Shown: positions 1-12,061 of the stretch, piece after piece
Numbering within the stretch: the first letter of the stretch is position 1
How the letters are laid out: each line of letters begins with the position of its first letter
DNA from: a virus
Taxonomy: Duplodnaviria > Heunggongvirae > Uroviricota > Caudoviricetes
Reading direction: 5' to 3' (one strand)
DNA length: 12,061 nucleotides
Virus record (IMG/VR): IMGVR_UViG_2574180227_000017
Notes under the pieces: model-generated
Told to the model about the DNA's origin: nothing
Database searches by the model: none
The model's input: only the letters and a program-made list of their open reading frames with translations
Made by a program: the position numbers and the translations under genes

Positions 1-1242
1 ATGGCGAGAAAAACACACCCATTAACCACAGTGCAGATCAAAGCAGCCAGACCAGCGCAAAAGGAGTACACCCTGCAGGACGGCGGAGGGCTTTTTCTCC
101 TGGTCAAACCGTCTGGATCAAAACTCTGGAGATTTTCCTACTACCGACCATCGGACAAAAAAAGAATATTGCTGAGTTTTGGATCGCTTGAAGATGTTTC
201 CCTGGCTGATGCCAGAAAACGCCGTAGCGAGTACAGGACGTTAATCAGTGCCGGAACTGACCCGCAGGACCACGAGAGGCAAAAAAGAGAGACAGAGGCC
301 CGAAGACAAGGGAACACGTTCGAAAATGTGGCGGCGGCATGGTACCAGGTGAAAATCAGCCAGAATCTGGCCCCCAACACGATTAAAGACATCTGGCGTT
401 CGCTGGATAAATATGTATTCCCGTTCATCGGCAACACGCCAATAGATACCCTCACCGCCCGAAGGTTCGTTGAAGTGCTTACCCCCATCAAGGAGCGCGG
501 CAACCTGGAAACACTCAAGCGGGTTTTACAGCGCGTTAATGAGGTAATGGATTACGCCGCCAACAGTGGGCTGATTGATGCCAATCCGGCTATGAATGTG
601 CGTAAGGCGTTTCCCTCACCTGTAAAAAAACATATGCCAACAATCCGCCCCGAACAGCTGCCCGAGCTTATGCAGGCTTTATCAGTATCGGCAACAGAAC
701 GGCAGACCAGATTACTGATTGAATGGCAGTTACTGACCGTAACCCGTCCCGCCGAAGCGTCATCAACGCGGTGGGATGAAATCAACCTGGACGCGAAGCA
801 ATGGACGATACCTGCCGGACGCATGAAGATGCGCAGGGATCACGTTATCCCGCTTTCCGGTCAGGCTATGGCGGTGCTGGAGGCCATGAAACCAATCAGC
901 CACCACCGCAATTACGTTTTCCCAAGTCTGAAAGACCCACAGCAGCCGATGAACAGCCAGACAGCTAACGCAGCATTGCGGCGTATGGGATTCGCTGGCG
1001 TGCTGGTGTCTCATGGATTACGCGCCATATTCAGCACAGCAGCGAACGAGGAAGGATTCGAGCCGGACGTAATAGAGGCGGCACTTGCCCACGTCGACAC
1101 CAACGAAGTTAGACGGGCATACAACCGGAGCAACTACATAGAAAAACGCATCGTGCTGATGCGCTGGTGGGGCGAATTTGTCGAGGCTGCGGCGACGGGC
1201 GTAACCCTCGCCAGTGGTAAAAGGGGTATCCGAGCCGTGTAG
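1..1242 (+). CDS. int: tyrosine site-specific integrase, P4/CP4-57 type
   Basis: 413-aa ORF. C-terminal catalytic region carries HGLR and AHVDTNEVRRAY motifs (His/Arg/Tyr of tyrosine recombinases). Overall architecture matches P4-family integrases. Sits at the element edge, so attL and the target are expected just upstream of the window. Confidence 0.9.
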   Translation: MARKTHPLTTVQIKAARPAQKEYTLQDGGGLFLLVKPSGSKLWRFSYYRPSDKKRILLSFGSLEDVSLADARKRRSEYRTLISAGTDPQDHERQKRETEARRQGNTFENVAAAWYQVKISQNLAPNTIKDIWRSLDKYVFPFIGNTPIDTLTARRFVEVLTPIKERGNLETLKRVLQRVNEVMDYAANSGLIDANPAMNVRKAFPSPVKKHMPTIRPEQLPELMQALSVSATERQTRLLIEWQLLTVTRPAEASSTRWDEINLDAKQWTIPAGRMKMRRDHVIPLSGQAMAVLEAMKPISHHRNYVFPSLKDPQQPMNSQTANAALRRMGFAGVLVSHGLRAIFSTAANEEGFEPDVIEAALAHVDTNEVRRAYNRSNYIEKRIVLMRWWGEFVEAAATGVTLASGKRGIRAV

Positions 1243-1248
1243 CTGTAC

Positions 1249-1295
1249 AGAAAACCAGTAAAAACTACGAAAACCATGTAAAACCGTCGTATAAT
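1249..1295 (+). promoter_or_regulatory. candidate promoter: four AAAAC tracts phased at about 10 bp (1251, 1261, 1270, 1280) ending in a TATAAT -10 (1290-1295)
   Basis: Read directly from the sequence. Helically phased A-tracts resemble an UP-element or bent DNA. No clear -35. Confidence 0.3.
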
Positions 1296-1319
1296 TGCAT
1301 CAAATTTAACGACAAGGCC

Positions 1320-1571
1320 GTGAAACATGAAACCGTTAAGATGCAAAAAAATATCAGATGCAATTGCGACGGGCTGCAACTGGCCCTGATGGTTCAGCAT
1401 GAATTTTGGTCAACCTACGATCCGGAGGACAGAACGACGGCCCCATCAAAAAAACAGGTAGTAGATTTTCTGGTATCCCGTGGCGCTTCCAGAAATCTGG
1501 CGGTAAGTATTGATAAGGTCGTACGTCCGGCATCTATGAAGATCGGAGGCAGGCCCAAAAAATGGCGGTAA
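1320..1571 (+). CDS. hypothetical small protein (start uncertain: GTG 1320, ATG 1341 or ATG 1389)
   Basis: ORF between int and alpA, flanked by a candidate promoter and a strong intrinsic terminator. No convincing Shine-Dalgarno. The transcript could instead be a small RNA. Confidence 0.3.
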   Translation: MKHETVKMQKNIRCNCDGLQLALMVQHEFWSTYDPEDRTTAPSKKQVVDFLVSRGASRNLAVSIDKVVRPASMKIGGRPKKWR

Positions 1572-1580
1572 CAATCCTGG

Positions 1581-1606
1581 AAGCGGCAGAAATGCCGCTT
1601 TTTTTA
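1581..1606 (+). terminator. rho-independent terminator
   Basis: Hairpin AAGCGGCA-GAAA-TGCCGCTT followed by a run of 7 T. Confidence 0.7.
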
Positions 1607-1632
1607 TAATTCCATTTCAAATCATCAATATA

Positions 1633-1725
1633 AAAAACGGTGTATACCGTTTAAAAACGGTGGGAACTGTTTTTACCCATATCTGATGATTTACCGTATT
1701 TGTCACCGGAATACACCGGATTCAC
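1633..1725 (+). promoter_or_regulatory. operator-like repeats upstream of alpA
   Basis: Inverted repeat AACGGT-GTAT-ACCGTT (1636-1651). Direct repeat AAAAACGG at 1633 and 1653. Direct repeat ACCGGA at 1705 and 1715. Confidence 0.3.
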
Positions 1726-1738
1726 AAGGTAAATCACG

Positions 1739-1945
1739 ATGGAAGCAATCAGAAAAATTATCTTTCGCCAGGAAGTAAAAAAAATTATCCACATCAAGGC
1801 AGACAGCACGCTGCAAAGCATGATCAACGCCGGAGAATTTCCGCAGGGTTTTCGCGTTGGTTTACGCCGTCGCGGATGGTATGAGGATGATGTGTTGTCC
1901 TGGCAGAAAGAACGCGAAGAGGAAGCACGCGGAACGGCTGCTTAA
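1739..1945 (+). CDS. alpA: AlpA-family phage regulatory protein (excisionase-like HTH)
   Basis: 68-aa protein. The ...INAGEFPQGFRVGLRRRGWYEDDVLSWQ... region matches the AlpA/Vis-type pattern (FP ... GW.E.E...W). Position immediately downstream of int is typical for PICI and P4-like elements. Confidence 0.8.
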   Translation: MEAIRKIIFRQEVKKIIHIKADSTLQSMINAGEFPQGFRVGLRRRGWYEDDVLSWQKEREEEARGTAA

Positions 1946-2093
1946 CGGGTATCACAGATATGACAAACACGAAAAAAGCGGCCCCGATATGGAGCCGTCT
2001 TTCTGAACAGATAACCCGCTGCGCTGTTTGTGTGTGTGATCCCAAACATAAGCACGGGGATGATAGCCGCTATCAGGCTAGTGGGCAATGCAA

Positions 2094-2432
2094 TCAGTCT
2101 GGTTCAGTTCGTTGCCATAACTGCGAAGCTCTCTCCTTTGATGAGTATTCTTTAAGGTACTTCTCAAGGGCAAAAGAACACGGCGCGAATCGTTCTGATT
2201 CATGCTCTTTCTTTCTGCGTCGTCTTTTTCGTGCAGGTGATGTTTTTTCGGTTGATTCTTCGTTGGTCATTGTGTGCGCCTGTAAAGCAATGCGCCGGAG
2301 TACCTCACACCACGGCGCTGATAGTTTTTATCCTTTGGGTTCTATGCCGCGTTGCTGTAATTCTTTGCGGATTATTCGCTTTATCCAGGCAGCAAGAGAA
2401 TCATCGCCGTCCTGTTGTTGTGCCTTTTCCAT
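2094..2432 (-). pseudogene. possible interrupted small ORF (34-aa ORF from ATG 2432, in-frame TAA at 2328-2330, frame then stays open into a 58-aa ORF from ATG 2270)
   Basis: Hand translation of the minus strand gives a charged, helix-like sequence (MEKAQQQDGDDSLAAWIKRIIRKELQQRGIEPKG * ... MTNEESTEKTSPARKRRRRKK...) in one frame with a single internal stop. It is divergent from the candidate promoter at 2501. Could equally be two unrelated short ORFs. Confidence 0.25.
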
Positions 2433-2500
2433 CTTTTCCCGTAAGTCAGGATCTAAACGGAACTGGAACGGAGGATTACCACGCCTTTCGTTTTTGTGTG

Positions 2501-2556
2501 TTGACACGTTAATTACACCTCATGTAATGTATTTATGTGTAATGACACATTACACA
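2501..2556 (+). promoter_or_regulatory. candidate early promoter (TTGACA 2501-2506, 16-nt spacer, TGTAAT 2523-2528) with a perfect palindrome TGTGTAATG-ACA-CATTACACA (2536-2556)
   Basis: Perfect -35 hexamer, imperfect -10. A 9-bp inverted repeat sits just downstream, and a third TGTAATG half-site overlaps the -10. Confidence 0.35.
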
Positions 2557-2635
2557 CAATCAACACAAAAAGCAAAGCCCCGCACTGTAGGAGCAGTAAC
2601 GGGGCTTCTAACCAACAACGTAAACTAGGAGCCGT

Positions 2636-3194
2636 TATGGTTGCCGTAAATCATATACCACACCTTGTACACACACAAACGGCCTTTGTGTGGCGTTTTC
2701 TGGCACTGAGTGCCGGAGAAAAAAACCGCTTGATCGCCACCAGCAAAAATGGCTATGATTCCCGCGCACCTCATAAAACGGGTGTCGGGATTAGCCTCCT
2801 GAAAACAACTGAAGCGCACAGCACGCGCCCCGCGTGTTTTTTTGTGCCGCATAGTCACACCTTATCAATGGTGGGCTGTACGGGGGCGGAGCAATCCGCG
2901 CCGGTTTCTTCAGTGTCCGGTAAGGCTAACCCTGTACAGTCCGCCACCAGCGAAATTAGCCTTTTGCGTGGCGGTTATCTTAACCACACTGAGGAGGCTG
3001 CCAACATGGCTACTATCCCTACCCTTGTACATTCTCAAACCGCATTTATCTGGCGCTTTATCATCTTTGGCGCGTCAGAATCTCAAATCATCCACGTAAC
3101 CGCCTGGACGGAACGCGAAGCGCGTAGCCGTTGCCCGTCCGGTTGTGTTGCTGTATTCGCCGCCCGTATTCGTCAGGGGTCACATCATGCGTAA
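2636..3194 (+). CDS. hypothetical protein with C-terminal ~60-aa module, possibly Icd-like (internal SD+ATG at 3006 could express the module alone)
   Basis: SD TAGGAG before ATG 2636 and SD GAGGAGG before in-frame ATG 3006. C-terminal module MATIPTLVHSQTAFIWRF...TEREAR...FAARIRQG is paralogous to the C-terminus of ORF 3187-3654, and a degenerate copy (HLVHTQTAFVWRF) sits near the N-terminus. Differences between copies are enriched for synonymous changes. Confidence 0.4.
2822..2843 (+). terminator. intrinsic terminator-like hairpin inside the leader/ORF (possible attenuator)
   Basis: CACGCG-CCC-CGCGTG followed by TTTTTTT. A related G-TTTTTTT-GTG element recurs at about 3310-3325. Confidence 0.45.
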
Positions 3195-3654
3195 AAACCG
3201 CTTGCAAAAAATTATCACGGGGCTGTATGCTTCCCCCGTCGCCCACATGGCGACCGGGTTTGACAGCCTGAATACTACAGCGGACAGCCGCTTACATTCC
3301 GATATGCGGTTTTTTTGTGTCCGTAAACCTACCCATACCCGCATTATGGCGGGGCGTAACGGGGGAGCCTTTGCGCTCGCTGGTTCCTGTAGTGCCAGTC
3401 TGTCAACCCTGTTACGTCTCGCCACCATGTTTGACAGCGTAGTAGCGAGACTCCTTAATTTCACTACAGGAGCCTTTCACATGGCTGTATTCGCACGCCC
3501 TTATTTTGTCTGGCGCTTTATGCAGTGCCTGACAGACAGCATTGCAATATTCACCGTTACCGCTGCCACTGAGCGCGAAGCACGTGCACAGCTGCCGCAC
3601 GCACATCTGATTTTTGTCGCCCGTATTCGTCAGGGGGAAACCTATGCACAATAA
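3187..3654 (+). CDS. hypothetical protein with C-terminal ~58-aa module, possibly Icd-like (internal SD+ATG at 3481)
   Basis: ATG 3187 overlaps the stop of the upstream ORF. C-terminal module MAVFARPYFVWRF...TEREAR...FVARIRQG is paralogous to 3006-3194. The N-terminal half has poor protein-like composition and may be RNA rather than coding. Confidence 0.4.
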   Translation: MRKNRLQKIITGLYASPVAHMATGFDSLNTTADSRLHSDMRFFCVRKPTHTRIMAGRNGGAFALAGSCSASLSTLLRLATMFDSVVARLLNFTTGAFHMAVFARPYFVWRFMQCLTDSIAIFTVTAATEREARAQLPHAHLIFVARIRQGETYAQ

Positions 3655-3865
3655 AACCACACCGGACGCAGCCGCCGCCGCACTCACTACGCTGATGCAC
3701 GCGCTTATTGATATTGAATGCACAGCAGAGCTTGCACAAAAGGAAGAAAGGGAAGAATACACACTATTCGCCCTGGAATGTATCCGATACACCGCCACGC
3801 GGTCGCTGAATGACGCTAAAAATATTCTTATTGCTGATTGTAAAAATGGCGGTGGTTATGCGTAA
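3644..3865 (+). CDS. hypothetical small protein (73 aa)
   Basis: SD GGGGGAAA before ATG 3644. Start overlaps the end of the upstream ORF, and the same CGTCAGGGG-N-ATG junction occurs at 3180-3189. The ORF track extends this to 3614. Confidence 0.4.
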   Translation: MHNKTTPDAAAAALTTLMHALIDIECTAELAQKEEREEYTLFALECIRYTATRSLNDAKNILIADCKNGGGYA

Positions 3866-4091
3866 TATTTATCTTGAAACAATAGACCGCGCATTTATTG
3901 CACTTTCTCACAGTGAAAGCATGATGGAAATATTGCGCATATGGCTTGAAACACTTGGCGACAATGAACGCGACAAACAAAAATCAAGAATTGCCACGGC
4001 ATTAATAACGCTTCTTGAGCCTGTAATAAATGAGTTGCAGGAAATAGAGACATTACACGACCAGTATAAAGCGCCCCACACCGGAGAATAA
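3858..4091 (+). CDS. hypothetical small protein (77 aa from ATG 3858; ORF track start 3810)
   Basis: ORF with GGTGG upstream of ATG 3858, overlapping the stop of the upstream ORF. Part of a chain of overlapping small genes. Confidence 0.35.
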   Translation: MRNIYLETIDRAFIALSHSESMMEILRIWLETLGDNERDKQKSRIATALITLLEPVINELQEIETLHDQYKAPHTGE

Positions 4092-4096
4092 AAATA

Positions 4097-4396
4097 ATGA
4101 AACTTAAATATTCTGGCTTAACTGCCAGTGGCAACACTCACCCTAAATTTACGCGCGGTGATATTTACCGCGACCAGTACGGCGGCACGGTAATGATTAA
4201 GGGCGTGGCGGGACGGTGCGTAACTTACCGCCGTGAAGGTTACGAATATGATTGCGTGATGCCTGTTTATCAGTTCCGGCGTGATTTTTCTCTGGTACAG
4301 ACCGCGCCGCATAACGTGCCCACCAGCAGGGAGAAAGCACGCGCCAATATTCAGGAAATAAAAAAGATGCTTAACGTATTCAGGGGTAAAAAATGA
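4097..4396 (+). CDS. hypothetical protein (99 aa), translationally coupled to the primase gene
   Basis: SD GGAGAA upstream. Stop overlaps the primase ATG (ATGA at 4393-4396). Confidence 0.55.
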   Translation: MKLKYSGLTASGNTHPKFTRGDIYRDQYGGTVMIKGVAGRCVTYRREGYEYDCVMPVYQFRRDFSLVQTAPHNVPTSREKARANIQEIKKMLNVFRGKK

Positions 4397-6141
4397 AACT
4401 GGCACCGAACGTAAAAAAACAGCCACGCGGAATAAAACACAAAGACACAGAGGTAATTATCTTTGCGGGTAGTGATGCCTGGTCACACGCGGAACAATGG
4501 CAGGAGCAGGATGGCCCCGCATCCGGCGATAATGTGCCGCCTGTGTGGCTTGGGCCAAATCAGCTTGCCGAACTTGATGCACTGAAAATTGTTCCGGATG
4601 GAAAAAAACGCGTAAGGCTGTACCAGGCCGGAGAACTGGATTTGGTGGAGACCAAAAAGATTGGTCAGAAGCTGGCGGCGGCAGATATTCAGGACGCAAA
4701 TTTTTACCCCGAAGGAATGCACGTCCAGAAGTGTGAAAACTGGCGGCGCTATCTGAATGCTGAGCGTGAAAATATTGCCGCAGGGCTTACCATGCCGGAG
4801 CAGAAAAATACGCAACTGGCACAAATGGCAGACAGTGAGCGCGCGCAGCTGCTTGCCGAGCGCTTTGATGGCGTTTGTGTGCATCCGGAAAGTGAAATCG
4901 TTCACGTATGGCGCGGCGGGGTATGGTGTCCGGTCAGCACAATGGAACTTAGCCGCGAAATGGTGGCGATCTATTCAGAGCACAGGGCCACTTTCAGCAA
5001 GCGCGTAATCAATAACGCCGTGGAAGCGTTAAAAGTTATTGCCGAACCAATGGGCGAGCCGTCCGGCGATTTGCTGCCGTTTGCCAATGGTGCGCTTGAC
5101 CTGAAAACGGGGGAATTTTCCCCGCACACGCCGGAGAACTGGATCACCACGCACAACGGCATTGAGTACACGCCACCAGCACCAGGGGAGAACATCCGCG
5201 ATAACGCGCCAAACTTTCATAAATGGCTTGAGCACGCAGCCGGAAAAGACCCGCGCAAGATGATGCGTATATGTGCCGCGCTGTACATGATTATGGCGAA
5301 CCGGTACGACTGGCAGATGTTTATTGAGGCCACCGGAGACGGCGGGAGCGGCAAAAGTACATTCACCCACATCGCCAGCCTTTTAGCGGGGAAACAAAAC
5401 ACGGTAAGCGCGGAAATGACATCGCTTGATGATGCTGGTGGGCGTGCGCAGGTTGTCGGGAGTCGTCTTATCGTCCTGGCAGACCAGCCGAAATATACAG
5501 GCGAAGGCACGGGCATCAAGAAAATCACGGGCGGCGACCCCGTGGAAATCAACCCGAAATATGAAAAGCGTTTCACTACGGTAATCAGGGCGGTGGTGCT
5601 GGCGACCAATAACAACCCGATGATATTCACCGAACGGGCCGGAGGCGTGTCACGTCGTCGGGTTATTTTCCGCTTCGACAATATCGTAAGCGAGGCAGAA
5701 AAAGACAGGGAGCTACCGGAAAAGATCGCGGCTGAAATCCCTGTCATTATCCGCCGCTTGCTGGCGAACTTTACCGACCCTGAGAAGGCACGGGCTTTAC
5801 TACTGGAACAGCGTGACGGTGATGAAGCTCTGGCAATAAAGCAACAGACGGATCCGGTTATTGAGTTTTGCCAGTTCCTGAATTTTCTGGAGGAAGCGCG
5901 CGGCCTGATGATGGGTGGCGGTGGCGATTCAGTGAAGTATACGACCAGGAACAGCCTTTACCGCGTCTATCTGGCGTTTATGGCGTACGCAGGCAGGAGC
6001 AAACCGCTAAACGTAAATGACTTTGGCAAGGCTATGAAGCCAGCCGCGAAAGTTTACGGACATGAATATATTACGCGGAAAGTTAAGGGAGTAACGCAGA
6101 CTAACGCAATAACAACAGACGATTGCGACGCGTTTTTATAA
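4393..6141 (+). CDS. replication primase/helicase, P4-alpha-like (D5_N-type domain plus SF3 P-loop NTPase)
   Basis: 582-aa ORF. Walker A GDGGSGKST, Walker B-like LIVLADQ, motif C VVLATNNNP. Followed immediately by an iteron array, as in P4 alpha/ori and PICI pri-rep/ori. Confidence 0.9.
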   Translation: MKLAPNVKKQPRGIKHKDTEVIIFAGSDAWSHAEQWQEQDGPASGDNVPPVWLGPNQLAELDALKIVPDGKKRVRLYQAGELDLVETKKIGQKLAAADIQDANFYPEGMHVQKCENWRRYLNAERENIAAGLTMPEQKNTQLAQMADSERAQLLAERFDGVCVHPESEIVHVWRGGVWCPVSTMELSREMVAIYSEHRATFSKRVINNAVEALKVIAEPMGEPSGDLLPFANGALDLKTGEFSPHTPENWITTHNGIEYTPPAPGENIRDNAPNFHKWLEHAAGKDPRKMMRICAALYMIMANRYDWQMFIEATGDGGSGKSTFTHIASLLAGKQNTVSAEMTSLDDAGGRAQVVGSRLIVLADQPKYTGEGTGIKKITGGDPVEINPKYEKRFTTVIRAVVLATNNNPMIFTERAGGVSRRRVIFRFDNIVSEAEKDRELPEKIAAEIPVIIRRLLANFTDPEKARALLLEQRDGDEALAIKQQTDPVIEFCQFLNFLEEARGLMMGGGGDSVKYTTRNSLYRVYLAFMAYAGRSKPLNVNDFGKAMKPAAKVYGHEYITRKVKGVTQTNAITTDDCDAFL

Positions 6142-6159
6142 TTTTTTGTAATTGCTGTC

Positions 6160-6390
6160 TACCCTGTCTACCTGAGTAAAGAAAAATACATTTAATTCAG
6201 TATATTAACTTAGGTAGACAGCCTTTTTTCACTGTCTACCTACTATCTACCCTCTCTACCTGATTTTACCTGAATCAGACAGGGAGGTAGATACGGGGTA
6301 GATAGTGGATAAAAGCACTCTACCCCGCTGAAAGCCGCGCCATTACTGGTATGAGGGCCACTAAGGTAGATAAGGTAGACAAGGGGAGGC
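6160..6390. repeat. replication origin iterons: about 11 copies of the 8-bp motif TNTCTACC / GGTAGANA in both orientations, plus an AT-rich segment
   Basis: Copies at about 6164, 6172, 6213 (inverted), 6235, 6243, 6251, 6287 (inverted), 6297 (inverted), 6320, 6366 (inverted), 6375 (inverted). AT-rich stretch 6186-6212. Confidence 0.7.
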
Positions 6391-6429
6391 ACAACTCAAA
6401 ACTTTTTAAACGAGGGGGTAAAAATAAAT

Positions 6430-6708
6430 ATGCACACTTCAGGGAAATTTAATAAATCACTCAAAAAACGCAGAGACAGAACAGAACCGAAATATCGCGC
6501 GTTAGACATGACAGAGCACGCTTTAAAGGTGGCAATCAGAACGATAGACCGCCACGCGGGGGAAGGATACGCGAAAGCACATCCCGAACTGATAAGCGCA
6601 TTCATGACCACGACGGCGGCAAATTTTGCCACGCTGACAGAGCGGGAGATTGCCGAAGCGGAACAGGTAACAACCATCAACGTTAAAACCGGAGAGGTGG
6701 AATCATGA
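6430..6708 (+). CDS. hypothetical protein (92 aa)
   Basis: SD GAGGGGG upstream of ATG 6430. Stop overlaps the ssb start (ATGA at 6705-6708). Confidence 0.5.
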   Translation: MHTSGKFNKSLKKRRDRTEPKYRALDMTEHALKVAIRTIDRHAGEGYAKAHPELISAFMTTTAANFATLTEREIAEAEQVTTINVKTGEVES

Positions 6709-7127
6709 CAGCACAGATAGCCGCTTACGGGCGGCTGGTGGACGACCCGCAGGTAAAACAGACCAGCAAGGGTACACCGATGACGCTGGCGCGTATGGCG
6801 GTATCTTTGCCATGCAGTCAGGCACAGGACGGACAGGCAGCGTTATGGCTATCAGTCCTGGCATTTGGTAAGCAGGCCGACGCGCTGGCGAGACATGAAA
6901 AAGGCGACCTTATCAGCGTGGCGGGTAACATGCAGATCAGCCAGTGGACCGGACAGAACGGAGAAACGCGGCAGGGCTGGCAGGTTATCGCAGACAGTGT
7001 AATCAGTGCGCGAACGGCGCGACTGGGCGGCAAAAAAGGTCAACAGGGCCAGGCTACTGACGCGCTGAACAGGGCAAAACAACAGGCGGGGAATGATGAT
7101 CCGTACGGGGATAACATACCGTTTTAA
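6705..7127 (+). CDS. ssb: single-stranded DNA-binding protein (SSB-like)
   Basis: 140 aa. OB-fold-like pattern alignable to E. coli SSB (G.L..DP ... FGK.A ... KGD..V.G ... W...NGE.R). Ends in the acidic tail DDPYGDNIPF, resembling the canonical SSB tail DDDIPF. Confidence 0.75.
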   Translation: MTAQIAAYGRLVDDPQVKQTSKGTPMTLARMAVSLPCSQAQDGQAALWLSVLAFGKQADALARHEKGDLISVAGNMQISQWTGQNGETRQGWQVIADSVISARTARLGGKKGQQGQATDALNRAKQQAGNDDPYGDNIPF

Positions 7128-7142
7128 GCGACGAGTGACAGA

Positions 7143-7165
7143 AGCCGGAGCAATCCGGCTTTTTT
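7143..7165 (+). terminator. rho-independent terminator
   Basis: AGCCGGA-GCAA-TCCGGCT followed by TTTTTT. Near-identical copy at 9584-9607. Confidence 0.7.
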
Positions 7166-7346
7166 ACGGGTCCTCCTGGCGGGGTGGGCCTGAACACGGG
7201 GCGGGAGGCGCGGAAAAAAGCGCATTTTTGTGATTTTATCGTCATCATCATCATGAGCGTAATTTATTGTTTTTAATTGTTTTGATGCAAAAAAGATGAT
7301 GGTTTTGGTTAATTTTCGTTCGACATCTTTGCAGGCAGATAAAAAA

Positions 7347-7377
7347 GCCCGATAAGGTCAGAGGTGGCTTATCGGGC
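7347..7377. terminator. hairpin with flanking A/T runs (terminator-like on both strands, stronger on minus)
   Basis: GCCCGATAAG-GTCAGAGGTGG-CTTATCGGGC, preceded by AAAAAA and followed by TTT. Confidence 0.45.
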
Positions 7378-7458
7378 TTTTGCATATGAGGCTTTTTGGT
7401 GCACTGACACACATGATCGGGATAATCATTTCATAATTTGCAACGCAATTCAATATCA

Positions 7459-7510
7459 TTGCACAAAATGCAATCATGATTATAATCATAACTGGATGAA
7501 CATCCAGTTA
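7459..7510 (+). promoter_or_regulatory. capsid-operon promoter (TTGCAC 7459-7464, 16-nt spacer, TATAAT 7481-7486) with palindromic operator ATAACTGGATG-AA-CATCCAGTTAT (7487-7510)
   Basis: Read from the sequence. The -10 lies inside the palindrome ATGATTATAATCAT. The operator overlapping the predicted start has the form CTG-N10-CAG. Confidence 0.45.
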
Positions 7511-7542
7511 TGATTTTTTAAGTCAAAGAGGAATTTCTTACT

Positions 7543-7749
7543 ATGGCTGAAGAGAAAAAAGGCGGTGTTTCGGTGTACATAAGCCCCGACATCGTGAAGG
7601 CGCTCAAGGAACGCCACCAGCAGAACGTAAAAGCAGGCATTGCGGCAGGACTTGATCCGCTGGCGATGGTTGAGCCGTCAACAGGCTGGCAGGTACGCGC
7701 CTATTTACGCGCGGCGCTGGGTATGAATCAGGTTCACGGGGGTGAATAA
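7543..7749 (+). CDS. hypothetical protein (68 aa), first gene of the capsid operon
   Basis: SD AGAGG upstream. Stop overlaps the capsid gene start (TAATG at 7747-7751). Confidence 0.5.
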   Translation: MAEEKKGGVSVYISPDIVKALKERHQQNVKAGIAAGLDPLAMVEPSTGWQVRAYLRAALGMNQVHGGE

Positions 7750-8804
7750 TGACAGTAAAAGCAATAGCACTTAACACTAACCAGCTTTTTGCGTACCTGA
7801 ATCGCGAGGATATTGCGGAATTTAAATTCAGTCCGCTGTTTACCGCGCTGTTTTTCCCGAACGTGGCGACATTCAACACACAGGACATCATGTTAGATAA
7901 CCTGGATATTGAAGAAGTCACTATGTCGGCGTTTTGTTCGCCTATGGTTGGTAGCCAGGTTCAGCGCGATAAAGGGTACGAAACAAGCATTATTCGCCCT
8001 GGCTACATGAAGCCAAAACACGAAATCGATCCATTAAAAACAATAATGCGCATGGCTGGAGAAGATCCGGCACAGCTTAACGACCCTACCTACCGCCGTA
8101 TGCGCCTGATTACTGGCAACATGCGCCGCCAGATAAACGCCATTAAAGCGCGCGTGGAATGGCTGGCGGTGAATGCGATAACGACCGGAAAAAACATCAT
8201 TGAGGGCGAAGGCATAGAACGCTATGAAATCGACTGGAAAATACCGGAAAACTGCATCATAGAGCAGGCCAAGGGTAAAAAATGGTCTGAGCAGGATAAA
8301 GACATACACGACCCAATATATGACATTGAACTATACGCAGATCAGGCAGGTTGCCCCGCCAACGTCATGATTATGGGCGTTGATGTATGGCGCATGTTAC
8401 GCAGCTTTAAAAAATTCCGTGAACTGTACGATCTCTCCCGTGGTTCAGAATCCGCCGCAGAGCTGGCATGTAAAAACCTGGGAGAAGTGGTGAGCTTTAA
8501 AGGCTATCTTGGTGATCTGGCCCTTATCGTCTATTCCGGCAAATACACTGACAGCGACGGCACAGAAAAATATTTCCTTGAGCCTGATTTGCTGGTCCTG
8601 GGCAACACCAACAATAAAGGGCTGGTGGCCTATGGTGCGATTATGGAACAGGAAGCGGTAAGAACGGGCGCAACGCAAAACATGTTTTACCCGAAAAACT
8701 GGATTGAAGACGGCGATCCGGCGATTGAGTACGTGCAGACACACAGCGCACCGCAGCCTGTTCCGGCAGATATTCGCAAATTTGTTACCGTCAAAATTGG
8801 TTAA
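7749..8804 (+). CDS. major capsid protein, lambda gpE family
   Basis: 351 aa. Multiple blocks align with lambda gpE as recalled: FKFSPLFTALFF vs FKFDPLFLRLFF, PGYMKPKHEIDP vs PGYVKPKHEVNP, EDPAQLNDPTYRRMRLI vs EDPQNLADPAYRRRRII, LGDLALIVYSGKY vs YGDVAIVVYSGQY, YPKNWIEDGDPA vs YPKNWVTTGDPA. Confidence 0.92.
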   Translation: MTVKAIALNTNQLFAYLNREDIAEFKFSPLFTALFFPNVATFNTQDIMLDNLDIEEVTMSAFCSPMVGSQVQRDKGYETSIIRPGYMKPKHEIDPLKTIMRMAGEDPAQLNDPTYRRMRLITGNMRRQINAIKARVEWLAVNAITTGKNIIEGEGIERYEIDWKIPENCIIEQAKGKKWSEQDKDIHDPIYDIELYADQAGCPANVMIMGVDVWRMLRSFKKFRELYDLSRGSESAAELACKNLGEVVSFKGYLGDLALIVYSGKYTDSDGTEKYFLEPDLLVLGNTNNKGLVAYGAIMEQEAVRTGATQNMFYPKNWIEDGDPAIEYVQTHSAPQPVPADIRKFVTVKIG

Positions 8805-8815
8805 CGGTGGATTCT

Positions 8816-9151
8816 ATGAACACTCCATACATTGAGTTATTTGCAGGCAGTCAGCAGGTATCAACGACGCTGGTACATTTTGCCGCTGATGCTGGCGTTA
8901 TTCAGGAATTTACCCCGCTGATGCTGGCGGACAATGGCGAGTTTAAGCCGTGGGATGGTCAGGAATCTGGCAAGGCTGTTTATCTGACCTCGTACCCCGT
9001 TGACACGTCGACGCAGAAATCAGCACAGTGCTATAAGACGGGGATATTCAATATCGCCGCCGTTAACTGGCCTGAGAGCGTCGACACCGATGCGAAAAAA
9101 TGCGCCGCCTTTGCGGGTTCTGGCGTATCCGTTCAGCCGCTGGCCCGATAA
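8816..9151 (+). CDS. head decoration protein, lambda gpD family (alternative GTG start at 8807)
   Basis: About 111 aa. Conserved gpD blocks TPLML, WDG, YKTGIF (lambda YKSGTF), WPE, KK.AAFAG. SD GGTGGA before ATG 8816. Confidence 0.85.
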   Translation: MNTPYIELFAGSQQVSTTLVHFAADAGVIQEFTPLMLADNGEFKPWDGQESGKAVYLTSYPVDTSTQKSAQCYKTGIFNIAAVNWPESVDTDAKKCAAFAGSGVSVQPLAR

Positions 9152-9163
9152 GCAGGGGGAACG

Positions 9164-9577
9164 ATGGCAACGAATGAAAGCATCATGGCGCTACCGCTGG
9201 CGAGTAAATTTAAAGCCGAAGCGCGGGCAATGGCTGACAGAGGGTTATCAACCTACGAGGCCGTATATCAACTCAACAAACTGGAAGAACAGGACAAGCC
9301 GCGCGCTGATGCGATTATGGCGCTTCATGAACATAACGACTATCAGCCGCTGTTACGTGCAATGGCAAACGTGCCATGTATTAGCGTCGATAATGCTCGT
9401 GAAATCCTGAACATGACCATAGAGCAGGAGCGCCCAAAGGTTGCACCAGAGCTTACCGCAGCCTTTGAAAACTTTATGGACATGCACAGCCCGCAAGCCG
9501 TATCAGCTGGCATGGCGTACGATGGCAGAAACCAGGGCGATGACGGCGACATCGATCGCATACTGAAAACCATCTGA
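9164..9577 (+). CDS. hypothetical protein (137 aa), last gene before cos
   Basis: ORF with SD GGGGGAA upstream, followed by a terminator. Similar in size and position to a head-completion or packaging accessory protein, but no motif recognised. Confidence 0.5.
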   Translation: MATNESIMALPLASKFKAEARAMADRGLSTYEAVYQLNKLEEQDKPRADAIMALHEHNDYQPLLRAMANVPCISVDNAREILNMTIEQERPKVAPELTAAFENFMDMHSPQAVSAGMAYDGRNQGDDGDIDRILKTI

Positions 9578-9583
9578 GACAAG

Positions 9584-9607
9584 GCCGGAGAAATCCGGCT
9601 TTTTTTT
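9584..9607 (+). terminator. rho-independent terminator
   Basis: GCCGGA-GAAA-TCCGGC followed by TTTTTTTT. Copy of the terminator at 7143. Confidence 0.7.
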
Positions 9608-9608
9608 A

Positions 9609-9675
9609 CGGGTCCTTTCCGGCATATGGACCCGTTACGGGGCGGCGACCTCGCGGTTTTTCGCTATTTATGAGC
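9609..9675 (+). other. cos site: cosN 12-nt cohesive-end sequence GGGCGGCGACCT at 9640-9651 with lambda-like flanks
   Basis: ACGGGTCCTTTCCGG...GTTACG-GGGCGGCGACCT-CGCGGTTTTTCGCTATTTATGA matches the lambda right-end/left-end junction as recalled (…GTTACG | GGGCGGCGACCT | CGCGGGTTTTCGCTATTTATGA…). Sequence after about 9675 diverges from lambda cosB. Confidence 0.75.
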
Positions 9676-9799
9676 CTTTTCAGGGGGGTGGTGGTGGTTT
9701 TGTTGTTTGCTCTATCTTTATGAATGAAAAGGGAAAGATGCAAACAATACACCAACCTGAAGCAGTAATTAAGTTGGTGTATTAATGAAATCGCACCTG

Positions 9800-10327
9800 A
9801 TGAACAAAAAAAACATGGCGAAAAGCTGCCGTGTAAGTGCGACAGCGTTCGACAAGTGGGGAGTGACTCCCGTTGAACGTAAAGGCCGTGAGGCGTTTTA
9901 TGATGTTGCCAGCGTGATAGACAATAGGGTTAACAATGCAATTAGCCAGCTTACAAACGACAAAGGCGATATTGACGATGATGAACTATTACGAGTCAGG
10001 ATCAGATTACTGACAGCGCAGGCGGAGGCGCAGGAGCTTAAAAACGAGCGCGAACGAGGCGACGTTATTGATACAGGGTTTTGCCTGTACGCGCTTTCAA
10101 AGCTGGCGAGCCAGATTTCTTCAATCATGGACAGCATCCCGCTTACTATGCAAAGGAGCTTTCCACACATTACCCCAGCCATGCTGGATGGGCTTAAAAG
10201 GGAAGTGGTTAAAGCCTGTAATGCCAGTGCCAGAGTTGCCGACAACCTCCCACAGATACTGGCTGATTACTTGAAAGAAACAACCGGAAACGTACCGGAA
10301 AAGTTGCAGCAGAATAAAGATAAGTAA
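9800..10327 (+). CDS. terminase small subunit, lambda Nu1 family (start taken at MNKKN by alignment; ORF track start 9785)
   Basis: Aligns with lambda Nu1 over its full length: NKK start, YD.A.VI, RLLTAQAEAQELKNERERGDVIDTGFCLYALSKLASQISSIMDSIPLTMQRSFP vs RLTRAQADAQELKNARDSAEVVETAFCTFVLSRIAGEIASILDGLPLSVQRRFP. The N-terminal DNA-recognition segment is the most diverged. Confidence 0.8.
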   Translation: MNKKNMAKSCRVSATAFDKWGVTPVERKGREAFYDVASVIDNRVNNAISQLTNDKGDIDDDELLRVRIRLLTAQAEAQELKNERERGDVIDTGFCLYALSKLASQISSIMDSIPLTMQRSFPHITPAMLDGLKREVVKACNASARVADNLPQILADYLKETTGNVPEKLQQNKDK

Positions 10328-10338
10328 CGTAGTACGCT

Positions 10339-10620
10339 ATGACTGAATCCGAAATACTGCGATTAATCCGCCGCGTCTCTGGAATCAGCCAGCAGGCTGA
10401 CGAACAGACCACGCAGCCGGACAGCGTGACAGCCGAAAACTATGCGCGTGTGGTTGCTGAGGTGATGCGCCGTGATGGTATCCAGCTTAATGATGTGGAT
10501 ATGCGCGACATACGGATCCGCGTTCTTGAAATGCTGGCCTACAATCGCCGCGTTGAGATGTATCGGGAGAAAGAAAAAATAACGTACCACTGGAAGAAGC
10601 CGGAGCGGTTGCGGCGGTAA
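10339..10620 (+). CDS. hypothetical protein (93 aa) in the position where lambda has terminase large subunit gpA
   Basis: ORF 11 nt downstream of the Nu1-like stop. Weak resemblance of residues about 5-40 to the gpA N-terminus (LRLIRRVSG / NRLRHFVRAG; VTAENYA / VEWADANYY). Not conclusive. Confidence 0.4.
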   Translation: MTESEILRLIRRVSGISQQADEQTTQPDSVTAENYARVVAEVMRRDGIQLNDVDMRDIRIRVLEMLAYNRRVEMYREKEKITYHWKKPERLRR

Positions 10621-10677
10621 CTGGTTGATATTTTCGGAAACCTCAATTTGAGGAGGCCGGAAGCGTCACCCTTTAGA

Positions 10678-10962
10678 TTCTGAATGGTGATAATCACCAC
10701 GCCCAATCGTGACGGAGAGTGACAGCCAGTGACACGCCGTGACAAAAGACGGTTTAACCGTTAATTAAAAATCGACGGGATTTTGTGTTTTCCGGACGAC
10801 GTAGCCAACGTCATTTTTTAGCGAAAAATTCTGATTAAGGTCATTGTCTGAATGGTCATAATGACCACGCAGACCATCAAGGCAACCATAACGATTTTCG
10901 TTACGGTTGATGTGTGCCTTCGTCCGGCATTCGGACGATATAAGGGATGGTCATAATGACCA
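10678..10962. repeat. three copies of a palindromic motif TGAATGGT(G/C)ATAAT(G/C)ACCAC (10681-10700, 10848-10870, 10945-10964)
   Basis: Near-identical 20-24 bp units read directly. Cores TGGTGATAATCACCA and TGGTCATAATGACCA (x2) are imperfect palindromes about an odd centre. Confidence 0.6.
10709..10743 (+). repeat. four GTGAC pentamers at exact 10-bp spacing (10709, 10719, 10729, 10739)
   Basis: GTGACGGAGA GTGACAGCCA GTGACACGCC GTGACAAAAG. Helically phased direct repeats. Confidence 0.6.
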
Positions 10963-11112
10963 CTCCTACAGAACAGGTAAAACCCACCAGCCTGATTAAC
11001 AGTTAACCGGAAAAAAAATCCGGCATGGGGGGGGAGTGGTTAGCCACGAACAACGAATAAGCTGGACACCGCGCCCCCTCTCACGCAGAGAAAAAATTAC
11101 CGTTTCGTAGTA

Positions 11113-11235
11113 GTTAACATGTTAACTGCCTGATGAAGCGTTGTTGTTGATTTTGTCTTTATGATTCATCTGGTTGCGAGCAAAAAATGTTAACTACCTT
11201 TTTGGTAAAAATGTTAACAGGGCAGAGGTTAACAT
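11113..11235. repeat. cluster of ATGTTAAC / GTTAACAT octamers, including the perfect palindrome GTTAACATGTTAAC (11113-11126)
   Basis: Copies at 11113, 11119, 11187, 11211 and 11228 (inverted). Confidence 0.55.
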
Positions 11236-11250
11236 TAACCTAGCGTAAAT

Positions 11251-11276
11251 CCCGATATGGTGATCACCATATCGGG
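11251..11276. repeat. 26-bp perfect palindrome CCCGATATGGTGATCACCATATCGGG
   Basis: Read directly. Contains a GATC site at its centre and a TGGTGA/TCACCA core related to the motif at 10685. Confidence 0.6.
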
Positions 11277-11487
11277 GAACATCCACCAGCTTAAAAACGA
11301 ATGAGCGAAAAAAAATCCAGGTAGAATCATGGAAGTCGCTAGGGCAATCGCCGTTTAAATTGTGCATTTTTTCAGCAAATTATTTTAGTTATACGTTTGG
11401 TTATACGGTTTAAAAGTTGAATCAATAATATTTATTAAAATCATGCGGTTACATGCTAAATTAAACTACTCTCGTGAATCCCAAGAA

Positions 11488-11575: not shown

Positions 11576-12061
11576 TCAGAACGTCCAGACCACACCCGCC
11601 TGAGTTGTGCTGCTTTCTTCACGGGAGAAACGGCTGTCGATACCGAGCGTCAGGCCCGTCAATGTTTGCTCAAAGCCAGCTCCCGCATCAGTGTTCACGT
11701 TGTTGCGGCTGTTAATTACCGAACTCCACATCGCCGTATCGTAATTAACGCCTTTTACGCTACCAAGACGCCCACGCACGGTGTCCAGTTCTGCATCAAA
11801 TACCAGCGGTTGTGCTGCCGCCATATTCAGCACATCCGTGGTTGAAGGGGGCATTTGTACGCGATTCTCTGCGAGACTCCAGCTATGGTTGCCATTATCC
11901 AGCAAGGTATATTCATACGTACTGATATCAACAACGCTTCCGGCATTGCCCAACGTAAATGCCGCATCACCGCGCCCTCCTTTAATCGTGGGATCAGTCG
12001 CCGCGCCATAAACCTGTAGCACTCCATTATTGATCGTAGTCTGGTTTACCGCGCCACCCAT
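11576..12061 (-). CDS. 3' portion of an autotransporter-like (type V secretion, Ag43/AIDA-like) gene; ORF runs off the window at its 5' side
   Basis: Passenger-like repeats (GGAVNQTTINNGVLQVYGAATDPTIKGG). YTLLDNGNHSWSLAEN resembles the Ag43 junction motif YSLNRDSDESWYLRSE as recalled. Ends in the aromatic terminus VWTF typical of outer-membrane beta-barrels, but only about 95 aa follow the junction motif, so the beta-domain looks too short. Confidence 0.45.
   Translation of the reverse strand: MGGAVNQTTINNGVLQVYGAATDPTIKGGRGDAAFTLGNAGSVVDISTYEYTLLDNGNHSWSLAENRVQMPPSTTDVLNMAAAQPLVFDAELDTVRGRLGSVKGVNYDTAMWSSVINSRNNVNTDAGAGFEQTLTGLTLGIDSRFSREESSTTQAGVVWTF

Follow-up and report, generated by a model that had tools for sequence, protein, structure and literature searches.

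A lambda-type cos site, small terminase and capsid genes in a probable classical phage-inducible chromosomal island at the Escherichia coli proL locus

Genes for a lambda-type capsid protein, head decoration protein and small terminase (TerS), together with a lambda-type cos site, stand behind an integrase and a primase-helicase in a 12,061-nucleotide (nt) stretch of DNA catalogued as a virus of the Caudoviricetes (IMG/VR record IMGVR_UViG_2574180227_000017; 'the window' hereafter denotes this whole stretch), which raises the question of whether the locus is a prophage remnant or a satellite that exploits phages, and, if a satellite, of which kind. We conclude that nearly all of a classical Gram-negative phage-inducible chromosomal island (PICI) very probably lies within the window. 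The island, ~11.7 kb long, is inserted in the 3' end of proL, a tRNA-Pro gene; its length includes ~850 nt past position 10620 and a further ~218 nt that precede the first base of the window. The island is a member of a published, catalogued Escherichia coli PICI family and is not new. A previous reading of the letters alone (the original prediction) had proposed a satellite of a lambda-type cos phage with a gene set running from int to TerS; Pfam and PHROG searches and pairwise comparisons with lambda placed every one of these genes where it had been predicted, and upheld the gpE, gpD and Nu1 assignments through matches to Phage_cap_E, HDPD and Phage_Nu1 and through pairwise lambda alignments. 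The features on which the argument rests are as follows.

1..1242, + strand: tyrosine integrase (int); Pfam Phage_integrase 5.7e-29, Phage_int_M and Arm-DNA-bind_3; phrog_1
1739..1945, + strand: AlpA-like helix-turn-helix regulator/excisionase; Pfam AlpA E 0.0028; PHROG 'excisionase and transcriptional regulator' 2.5e-6
4393..6141, + strand: primase-helicase (pri-rep); D5_N, DUF5906 and Pox_D5; phrog_864 2.8e-170
6149..6386, no strand assigned: iteron replication origin; TCTACC repeats, facing both ways, surround an AT-rich segment at 6172-6215
6705-7127, + strand: single-strand DNA-binding protein (ssb); SSB 8e-16
7749..8804, + strand: major capsid protein homologue (gpE family); Phage_cap_E 7.7e-48
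8807..9151, + strand: head decoration protein homologue (gpD family); HDPD 3.7e-18; likely start ATG at 8816
9164..9577, + strand: 137-amino-acid (aa) open reading frame (ORF), gpC-type scaffold-end homologue; phrog_1999 4e-64; phrog_53 residues 494-567
9581..9784, + strand: cos region, comprising a hairpin, a cosQ-like block, cosN and a cosB-equivalent
9785..10327, + strand: Nu1-family TerS, full-length; Phage_Nu1 9e-23; phrog_57 over residues 1-178

Six-frame ORFs and family scans of the window gave a nearly unidirectional string of genes, with all assigned genes on the + strand save one small ribbon-helix-helix ORF. Set against the core and forbidden PICI components of the SatelliteFinder definition (PMC10085698), this string has an integrase at its left end with a dedicated attachment (att) site (located by comparison with the empty site of K-12, and listed for published PICIs); an alpA-type regulator after int and rightward transcription in one direction, although the AlpA match is weak; a primase-replicase followed directly by an iteron origin; and a capsid-morphogenesis gene with a terS/rpp-type gene and cos, without tail, lysis, large terminase (TerL) or portal genes. 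Only int, pri and the capsid gene exceed 222 aa in the window, so neither a TerL nor a portal gene can be accommodated, and the ORF list with Pfam and PHROG scans revealed no portal, TerL, protease, tail or lysis gene among the window ORFs. The predicted lack of portal, TerL, tail and lysis genes therefore stands for the window; the predicted lack of 'protease/scaffold' stands for the protease but needs qualifying for the scaffold: the ORF at 9164-9577 and the scaffold part of gpC-type proteins are homologues. In gene order the window fits a classical PICI, as opposed to capsid-forming PICIs (cf-PICIs) and P4-like satellites, whose packaging and capsid-hijacking sets it does not hold. To the question, left open by the original prediction, of whether this capsid-carrying arrangement had been described, the answer is that it is already documented (Fillol-Salom et al. 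2018; PMC10111431; the SatelliteFinder core list). Specifically, a capsid gene is present in 21 of the 29 reference Gram-negative PICIs, whose zones are described as integration, Bro/immunity-RNA, replication and late (PMC10111431), and capsid morphogenesis plus terS belong to the PICI core, complete 'type A' sets being almost confined to E. coli (PMC10085698).

The chromosomal context points the same way. A single locus of E. coli chromosomes matches the window, with yejM and tRNA-Pro on one side of the relatives' islands and yejO and narP on the other; had portal, TerL or tail genes lain just outside, an ordinary prophage would have been indicated, and the relatives' flanks held housekeeping genes only, with no further phage genes nearby. 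These tRNA-Pro and housekeeping flanks, the published PICIs at the locus and a late-module protein identity of 90-98% to EcCICFT073, an experimentally characterised E. coli PICI, bear out the satellite interpretation. The insertion follows the proL 3' end, as judged from the K-12 empty site. The first base of the window is the ATG of int; upstream of it, outside the window, the left flanks of relatives contain ~218 nt of island with four GTTATACG motifs, two direct and two inverted (L001 5917-5966). The right boundary is a degenerate copy of the proL 3' end, TTAAACTACTCTCGTG, at 11461-11476 (a 16-nt remnant, the full 23-nt tRNA-Pro 3' copy not being found in the window), and the right end, previously set at 10620, accordingly moves to ~11476 in the K-12 comparison.

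For this locus a 26-nt 'att core' has been published (Fillol-Salom et al. 2018, ISME J, Table S1), which is the doubled GTTATACG motif. The motif occurs twice at the right end of the window (11384-11407), in addition to the four copies upstream of int in relatives; EcCICFT073, with its different integrase, lacks it. We infer that the GTTATACG motifs are integrase-binding sites rather than the crossover point, a reading of them as flanking sites that agrees with the remapping of many reference PICIs to tRNA genes (PMC10111431). A hypothetical empty site built on that core was not contiguous in any complete genome, and direct comparison with K-12 shifted the junction to the end of the tRNA. What was published as the att core thus looks like a flanking integrase-site motif, whereas the insertion is in the proL 3' end. 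Beyond the island, the C-terminal part of the yejO autotransporter occupies 11576-12061 on the - strand (Pertactin and Autotransporter domains) as chromosomal flank; yejO is a pseudogene in several relatives.

The packaging locus resolves into four parts.

9581-9602, + strand: terminator-like hairpin (terminator scan)
~9610-9625, + strand: cosQ-like block, TTTACGGGTCCTTTCCGG (lambda comparison)
9640-9651, + strand: cosN, GGGCGGCGACCT, an exact lambda match over 12 nt
~9676-9784, + strand: cosB-equivalent region, unlike lambda and unlike the EcCICFT073 cos1 or cos2 type

That cosN would be identical to the lambda site had been predicted, and the flanking sequence proved lambda-like as well, from the cosQ-like block to about +35, beyond which it diverges. 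The TerS encoded downstream is 34% identical to Nu1, in an alignment that covers Nu1 residues 3-180 and so takes in the C-terminal TerL-binding end; this full-length homology, with no similarity to RppA, assigns it on sequence grounds to the Nu1 family as opposed to Rpp, and its closest phage TerS is N15 gp1 (46.6%). Across islands, cosQ and cosN are conserved and cosB is specific to each packaging protein; TerS and RppA look like alternative cassettes in one slot, each apparently paired with its own cosB, and such an exchange agrees with the published proposal of an origin of Rpp from TerS. The relative S1-CAM-02-A (L001 15452-16113) is without terS and its cos1 has a cosB of the EcCICFT073 cos2 type, which suggests cassette exchange at the packaging locus.

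In the replication module, 11 of the 12 TCTACC/GGTAGA hexamers of the window fall within 6158-6380, beside a stretch that is 77-80% AT, and this origin layout is the same as that described in the literature for Gram-negative PICI origins. After ssb, a perC-family regulator is found in L001, L002 and EcCICFT073, and unrelated non-coding sequence in the window (7127-7340) and in ATCC 25922.

The late operon comprises, besides the capsid, decoration, 137-aa and TerS genes, the following.

7336..7542, + strand: late-operon leader (alignment; terminator scan; RNA fold z -4.2)
7543..7749, + strand: 68-aa ORF; phrog_3255; its stop overlaps the capsid gene start codon
10339..10620, + strand: 93-aa conserved ORF; phrog_1561 1e-55

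The leader (~200 nt) is almost invariant across five islands and contains a hairpin at 7336-7388, a perfect TATAAT at 7481-7486 and, overlapping it, an 11-14 bp hairpin with a T-run at 7484-7521; its interpretation as a copy of a phage Q-dependent late promoter region was dropped for want of any phage DNA match. The 68-aa protein had no BLASTP match to lambda gpW. The capsid protein is 42% identical to lambda gpE over its full length and the decoration protein 37% identical to lambda gpD. Ratios of nonsynonymous to synonymous substitution rates (dN/dS) against three relatives were 0.11-0.19 for the capsid protein, 0.15-0.18 for TerS and ~0.2 for the 137-aa ORF, within an overall range of 0.1-0.25 for the late genes; far from decaying, the genes for the capsid, decoration and scaffold-derived proteins are intact and subject to purifying selection. 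At a coverage of at least 80%, the late module was recovered from 493 of the 5,426 complete E. coli genomes.

The 137-aa protein is a homologue of the C-terminal (scaffold) part of phage-21/Gifsy-type gpC/Nu3 proteins, a link drawn from PHROG profiles and pairwise comparisons. Residues 362-493 of Gifsy-1 gpC match phrog_1999, the 137-aa family, end to end (1.7e-52); a stand-alone 195-aa protein with 'head scaffolding' and 'capsid assembly' family matches also hits phrog_1999; and residues 49-119 of the 137-aa protein align pairwise to Gifsy-1 gpC residues 411-480 (E 1e-8) and, in phage 204576, to the corresponding region that precedes the decoration gene. BLASTP against lambda Nu3, gpC and FI gave no similarity, a whole-library phmmer search returned eight proteins only, and AlphaFold, from a shallow alignment, produced an all-helical model with a predicted local distance difference test score (pLDDT) of 47, a quality insufficient for fold comparison. 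Comparison of the 137-aa protein and TerS with PDB sequences yielded nothing meaningful, recovering neither RppC nor the Nu1 DNA-binding domain. As a scaffold-end homologue, the 137-aa protein offers a testable lead on why these islands retain capsid genes that seem dispensable in the laboratory.

The zone between int and the primase contains the regulators. The Pfam AlpA match scored below its cut-off (see below), and the AlpA call was nevertheless made because of the PHROG match and a position equivalent to that of alpA in published PICIs; a small ORF separates it from int. Further features of this zone are listed here.

2328..2507, - strand: Arc-like ribbon-helix-helix protein; phrog_228 Arc-like repressor 2.1e-6; annotated in relative L001
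2535-3194, + strand: Ash-family frame; Phage_ASH 3e-11
2766..3654, + strand: immunity-RNA zone; Rfam gathering-level matches of 75.4, 72.3, 61.8 and 46.8 bits; PHROG repressor families
2766-2842, + strand: isrK/seqA-like leader (Rfam)
2864-2951, + strand: C4/CI-type RNA (Rfam)
3006-3194, + strand: Icd-like ORF (RefSeq 'Icd-like' in relatives)
3225-3274, + strand: a1b1 target element (Rfam)
3342-3429, + strand: second C4-type RNA (Rfam)
3484-3654, + strand: second Icd-like ORF (RefSeq 'Icd-like' in relatives)

Two full-length C4/CI-type antisense RNAs (the 75.4- and 72.3-bit Rfam matches) each have an isrK- or a1b1-type target before them and an Icd-like ORF after them, and the zone is a tandem duplicate of a P4/P1-type RNA immunity unit; C4/isrK matches in Gram-negative PICIs have been noted previously (PMC10111431). 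The Arc-like ORF is the sole candidate minus-strand gene of the island. It is overlapped by a 222-aa plus-strand ORF (1960-2628) without a family match, and RefSeq annotates either the one or the other, varying by relative.

How such an island might move can be sketched from EcCICFT073, in which a helper activates alpA, the island excises and replicates from its pri-ori, and transduction by lambda, phi80 and resident prophages is cos-dependent. In the resting state, the island in the window is probably kept silent in part by its P4/P1-type antisense-RNA immunity module. By analogy with EcCICFT073, induction of, or infection by, a lambda-type helper would switch on AlpA, and excision via Int would be followed by replication from the island's own iteron origin with the primase-helicase and SSB. 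The helper's TerL could cut the island cos, because cosQ and cosN are those of lambda-like phages. In EcCICFT073, the adaptor RppA retargets the helper TerS via RppA-TerS heterodimers; here, the island TerS most likely binds its own cosB and recruits the helper TerL directly via its conserved C-terminal end, which would divert terminase from phage to island. For portal, protease, connector, tail and lysis functions the island must rely on the helper.

Several observations weigh against the PICI interpretation or limit it. In the literature examined, helper-dependent induction, high-frequency transfer and interference with the helper are documented for EcCICFT073 only, which is not a TerS-type island; the attL side falls beyond the left edge of the window; the Pfam AlpA score (17.9 bits) is under the 21-bit cut-off; and no phage TerS or capsid protein is more than 47% identical, too distant a match to name a helper phage. 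Further, the right junction is 9 nt shorter than in L001 and L003, with the GACCAAAAA region missing directly after CTCTCGTG, and the second, inverted cos of relatives is missing: these, including EcCICFT073, have an inverted second cosN in a ~250-bp spacer between terS/rpp and the 93-aa ORF (L003 11489-11744; L009 11095-11373), where the window has 11 nt (10327-10339). The single-cos form also occurs in strain N10. The 9-nt deletion or the missing second cos could reduce mobility, and the deletion might affect excision.

Of the other ways of reading the locus, a decayed lambda-like prophage, with the capsid, decoration and scaffold-fragment genes, cos and Nu1 as head-cluster leftovers that no longer function as a unit, would account for the membership of all late genes in lambda head and packaging families and, by way of deletions and rearrangement, for their order (E, D, Nu3-like, cos, Nu1), and PICI late genes have been proposed to be captured from prophages (PMC10111431). 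However, hundreds of genomes carry this compact set with its frames intact, at different att sites, its dN/dS is 0.1-0.25, no phage exceeds 47% identity in capsid protein or TerS, a near-identical module resides in an island shown to transfer (EcCICFT073), the int, alpA, primase and iterons are not lambda-like, and neither the window nor the relatives' flanks hold contiguous head, tail and lysis genes with lambdoid immunity and replication. A front end that is not lambdoid, the return of the compact set at several att sites and purifying selection are thus our reasons for excluding a defective lambda prophage, to which we assign only a very small probability. Equally improbable is a P4-type satellite exploiting a P2-like helper. 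Such an element would share the integrase next to a tRNA, the AlpA-type regulator, the Ash-family frame (ash/epsilon), the alpha-type primase (D5-type primase-helicase, D5_N match) and the CI/C4-type immunity RNA with its isrK/seqA-like target, and these ash, primase and RNA-immunity features are common to P4 and Gram-negative PICIs (PMC10111431), so that the early region has a clear relationship to P4; against it, Pfam and PHROG scans of all candidate ORFs gave no Psu, Sid or Delta match, the cos is lambda-type and the late genes are of lambda families, and the P2/P4 cohesive-end sequence was not found in the window.

A third possibility concerns what the shell genes do: the island could be a capsid-forming island in the making, in which its own capsid, decoration and scaffold-derived proteins would build a satellite-specific, possibly small, shell on the helper portal, to be loaded through TerS. 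The three shell-related genes are intact and constrained; an own decoration protein would be needed only if the own capsid protein were in the shell; 11.7 kb would be ~86% of the T=3 shell capacity that we estimate by scaling from lambda; and PmCI172, which has a capsid homologue, makes small capsids (Fillol-Salom et al. 2018). Yet no portal or protease gene is present in the window, and the results for EcCICFT073, whose c1499 and c1500 are capsid and decoration homologues (Fillol-Salom 2018) 94-96% identical to those of the window, are unfavourable: deletion of c1499 or c1500 changed neither CFT073 resident-prophage transfer nor interference with lambda, of the post-ori genes, each expressed by itself, rppA alone inhibited lambda, and all DNA packaged with lambda was phage-sized. 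The capsid-size test used lambda only, and the 137-aa protein resembles the scaffold end of 21/Gifsy-type phages, not lambda. TerS-type classical PICIs may conceivably build their own shell only with natural phage-21/N15-type helpers, possibly a small one fitting a single 11.7-kb genome, but we consider this, like the capsid-forming reading as a whole, unlikely. If it were true, negatives obtained with lambda and an Rpp-type island would have missed such shells, and TerS-type islands would be functional intermediates between classical and capsid-forming PICIs. For the classical PICI that we favour, the value of the present analysis lies mainly in annotation, as most genes of the family are still 'hypothetical' in RefSeq.

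The remaining features of the island are small early ORFs, one ORF of the replication module and the right arm.

3614-3865 and 3810-4091, + strand: small early ORFs; PHROG families of unknown function
4097-4396, + strand: DUF4222 protein; DUF4222 2e-23; overlaps the pri start
6430-6708, + strand: 92-aa ORF; phrog_1231
10621..11476, no strand assigned: non-coding right arm, with palindromes, ATGTTAAC motifs, the doubled GTTATACG and the tRNA-Pro remnant junction

In the right arm, TGGTSATAATSACCA palindromes of the form TGGT(C/G)ATAAT(G/C)ACCA start at 10684, 10852 and 10947 (within 10679-10965, spaced 95-168 nt), followed by five ATGTTAAC motifs at 11113-11235 and a related GGTGATCACC palindrome at 11251-11276. 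Both the ATGTTAAC motifs and the GGTGATCACC palindrome recur in L001, together with two TGGTSATAATSACCA-type palindromes of the three (those at window 10852 and 10947); ATCC 25922 is without the ATGTTAAC motifs and the GGTGATCACC palindrome. Ten window ORFs had no match in NCBIfam. PADLOC found no defence-system match in the window, which is therefore without recognisable defence cargo.

Among known satellites, functional precedents for island-encoded shell proteins come from staphylococci. Ccm of SaPIbov5 is a satellite-encoded relative of the helper capsid protein and a precedent for the island capsid homologue, and CpmB of SaPI1 is reportedly a relative of the coat-binding end of the helper scaffold and, as such, a precedent for the 137-aa protein; neither Ccm nor CpmB has a sequence relationship to the island proteins, and size redirection has not been seen for E. 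coli islands. Like the window, P4 combines an integrase at a tRNA with an AlpA-type regulator, a gene of the Ash family, RNA immunity of the CI/C4 type and a D5-type primase-helicase; it has psu, sid and delta with a P2-type cos, whereas the window has a lambda-type capsid, decoration protein and TerS with the lambda cosN. The cf-PICI EcCIEDL933 shares the int-alpA-pri front end, an own capsid protein and TerS, and a dependence on helpers for tails, but the cf-PICI gene set further includes TerL, portal, protease, HNH and head-tail adaptors and connectors, and cf-PICIs build their own small capsids; those genes are not in the window, where only the gpC-type scaffold end is present.

EcCICFT073 has the same four-zone plan as the window. 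Its proteins are close throughout the replication (77-91% identical, with pri at 91%) and late modules (capsid 94%, c1499; decoration 96%, c1500; 137-aa ORF 93%; 68-aa ORF 98.5%; 93-aa ORF 90%), cosQ and cosN are identical and the late-operon leader is conserved. By contrast, its integrase is only 24% identical and its att site is another (ycfD-phoQ), RppA (144 aa) occupies the slot of the window TerS (180 aa) with no detectable similarity between them, and it differs in cosB, in having two cos sites and in its perC gene. Islands published for the yejM-luxR site are EcCIATCC25922, EcCIED1a.1, EcCI11128, EcCI11368.1, SdCI1012 and SbCISb227 (Fillol-Salom et al. 2018, Table S1), of which the first two are the closest known systems. 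EcCIED1a.1 is published at the same site with the same plan; the sequence comparison covered EcCIATCC25922 only. Relative to the latter, the window is without the 250-bp spacer bearing the second inverted cos and has the 9-nt right-junction deletion, and the immunity-RNA/small-ORF zone (~2330-3850) is a different mosaic. Elsewhere EcCIATCC25922 is 97.6% identical to the window in nucleotide sequence over 1-2325 and 93.6% over 3857-10328, and it occupies the same site, is flanked by the same GTTATACG motifs and has its genes in the order of the window all the way from int to the 93-aa ORF, TerS included.

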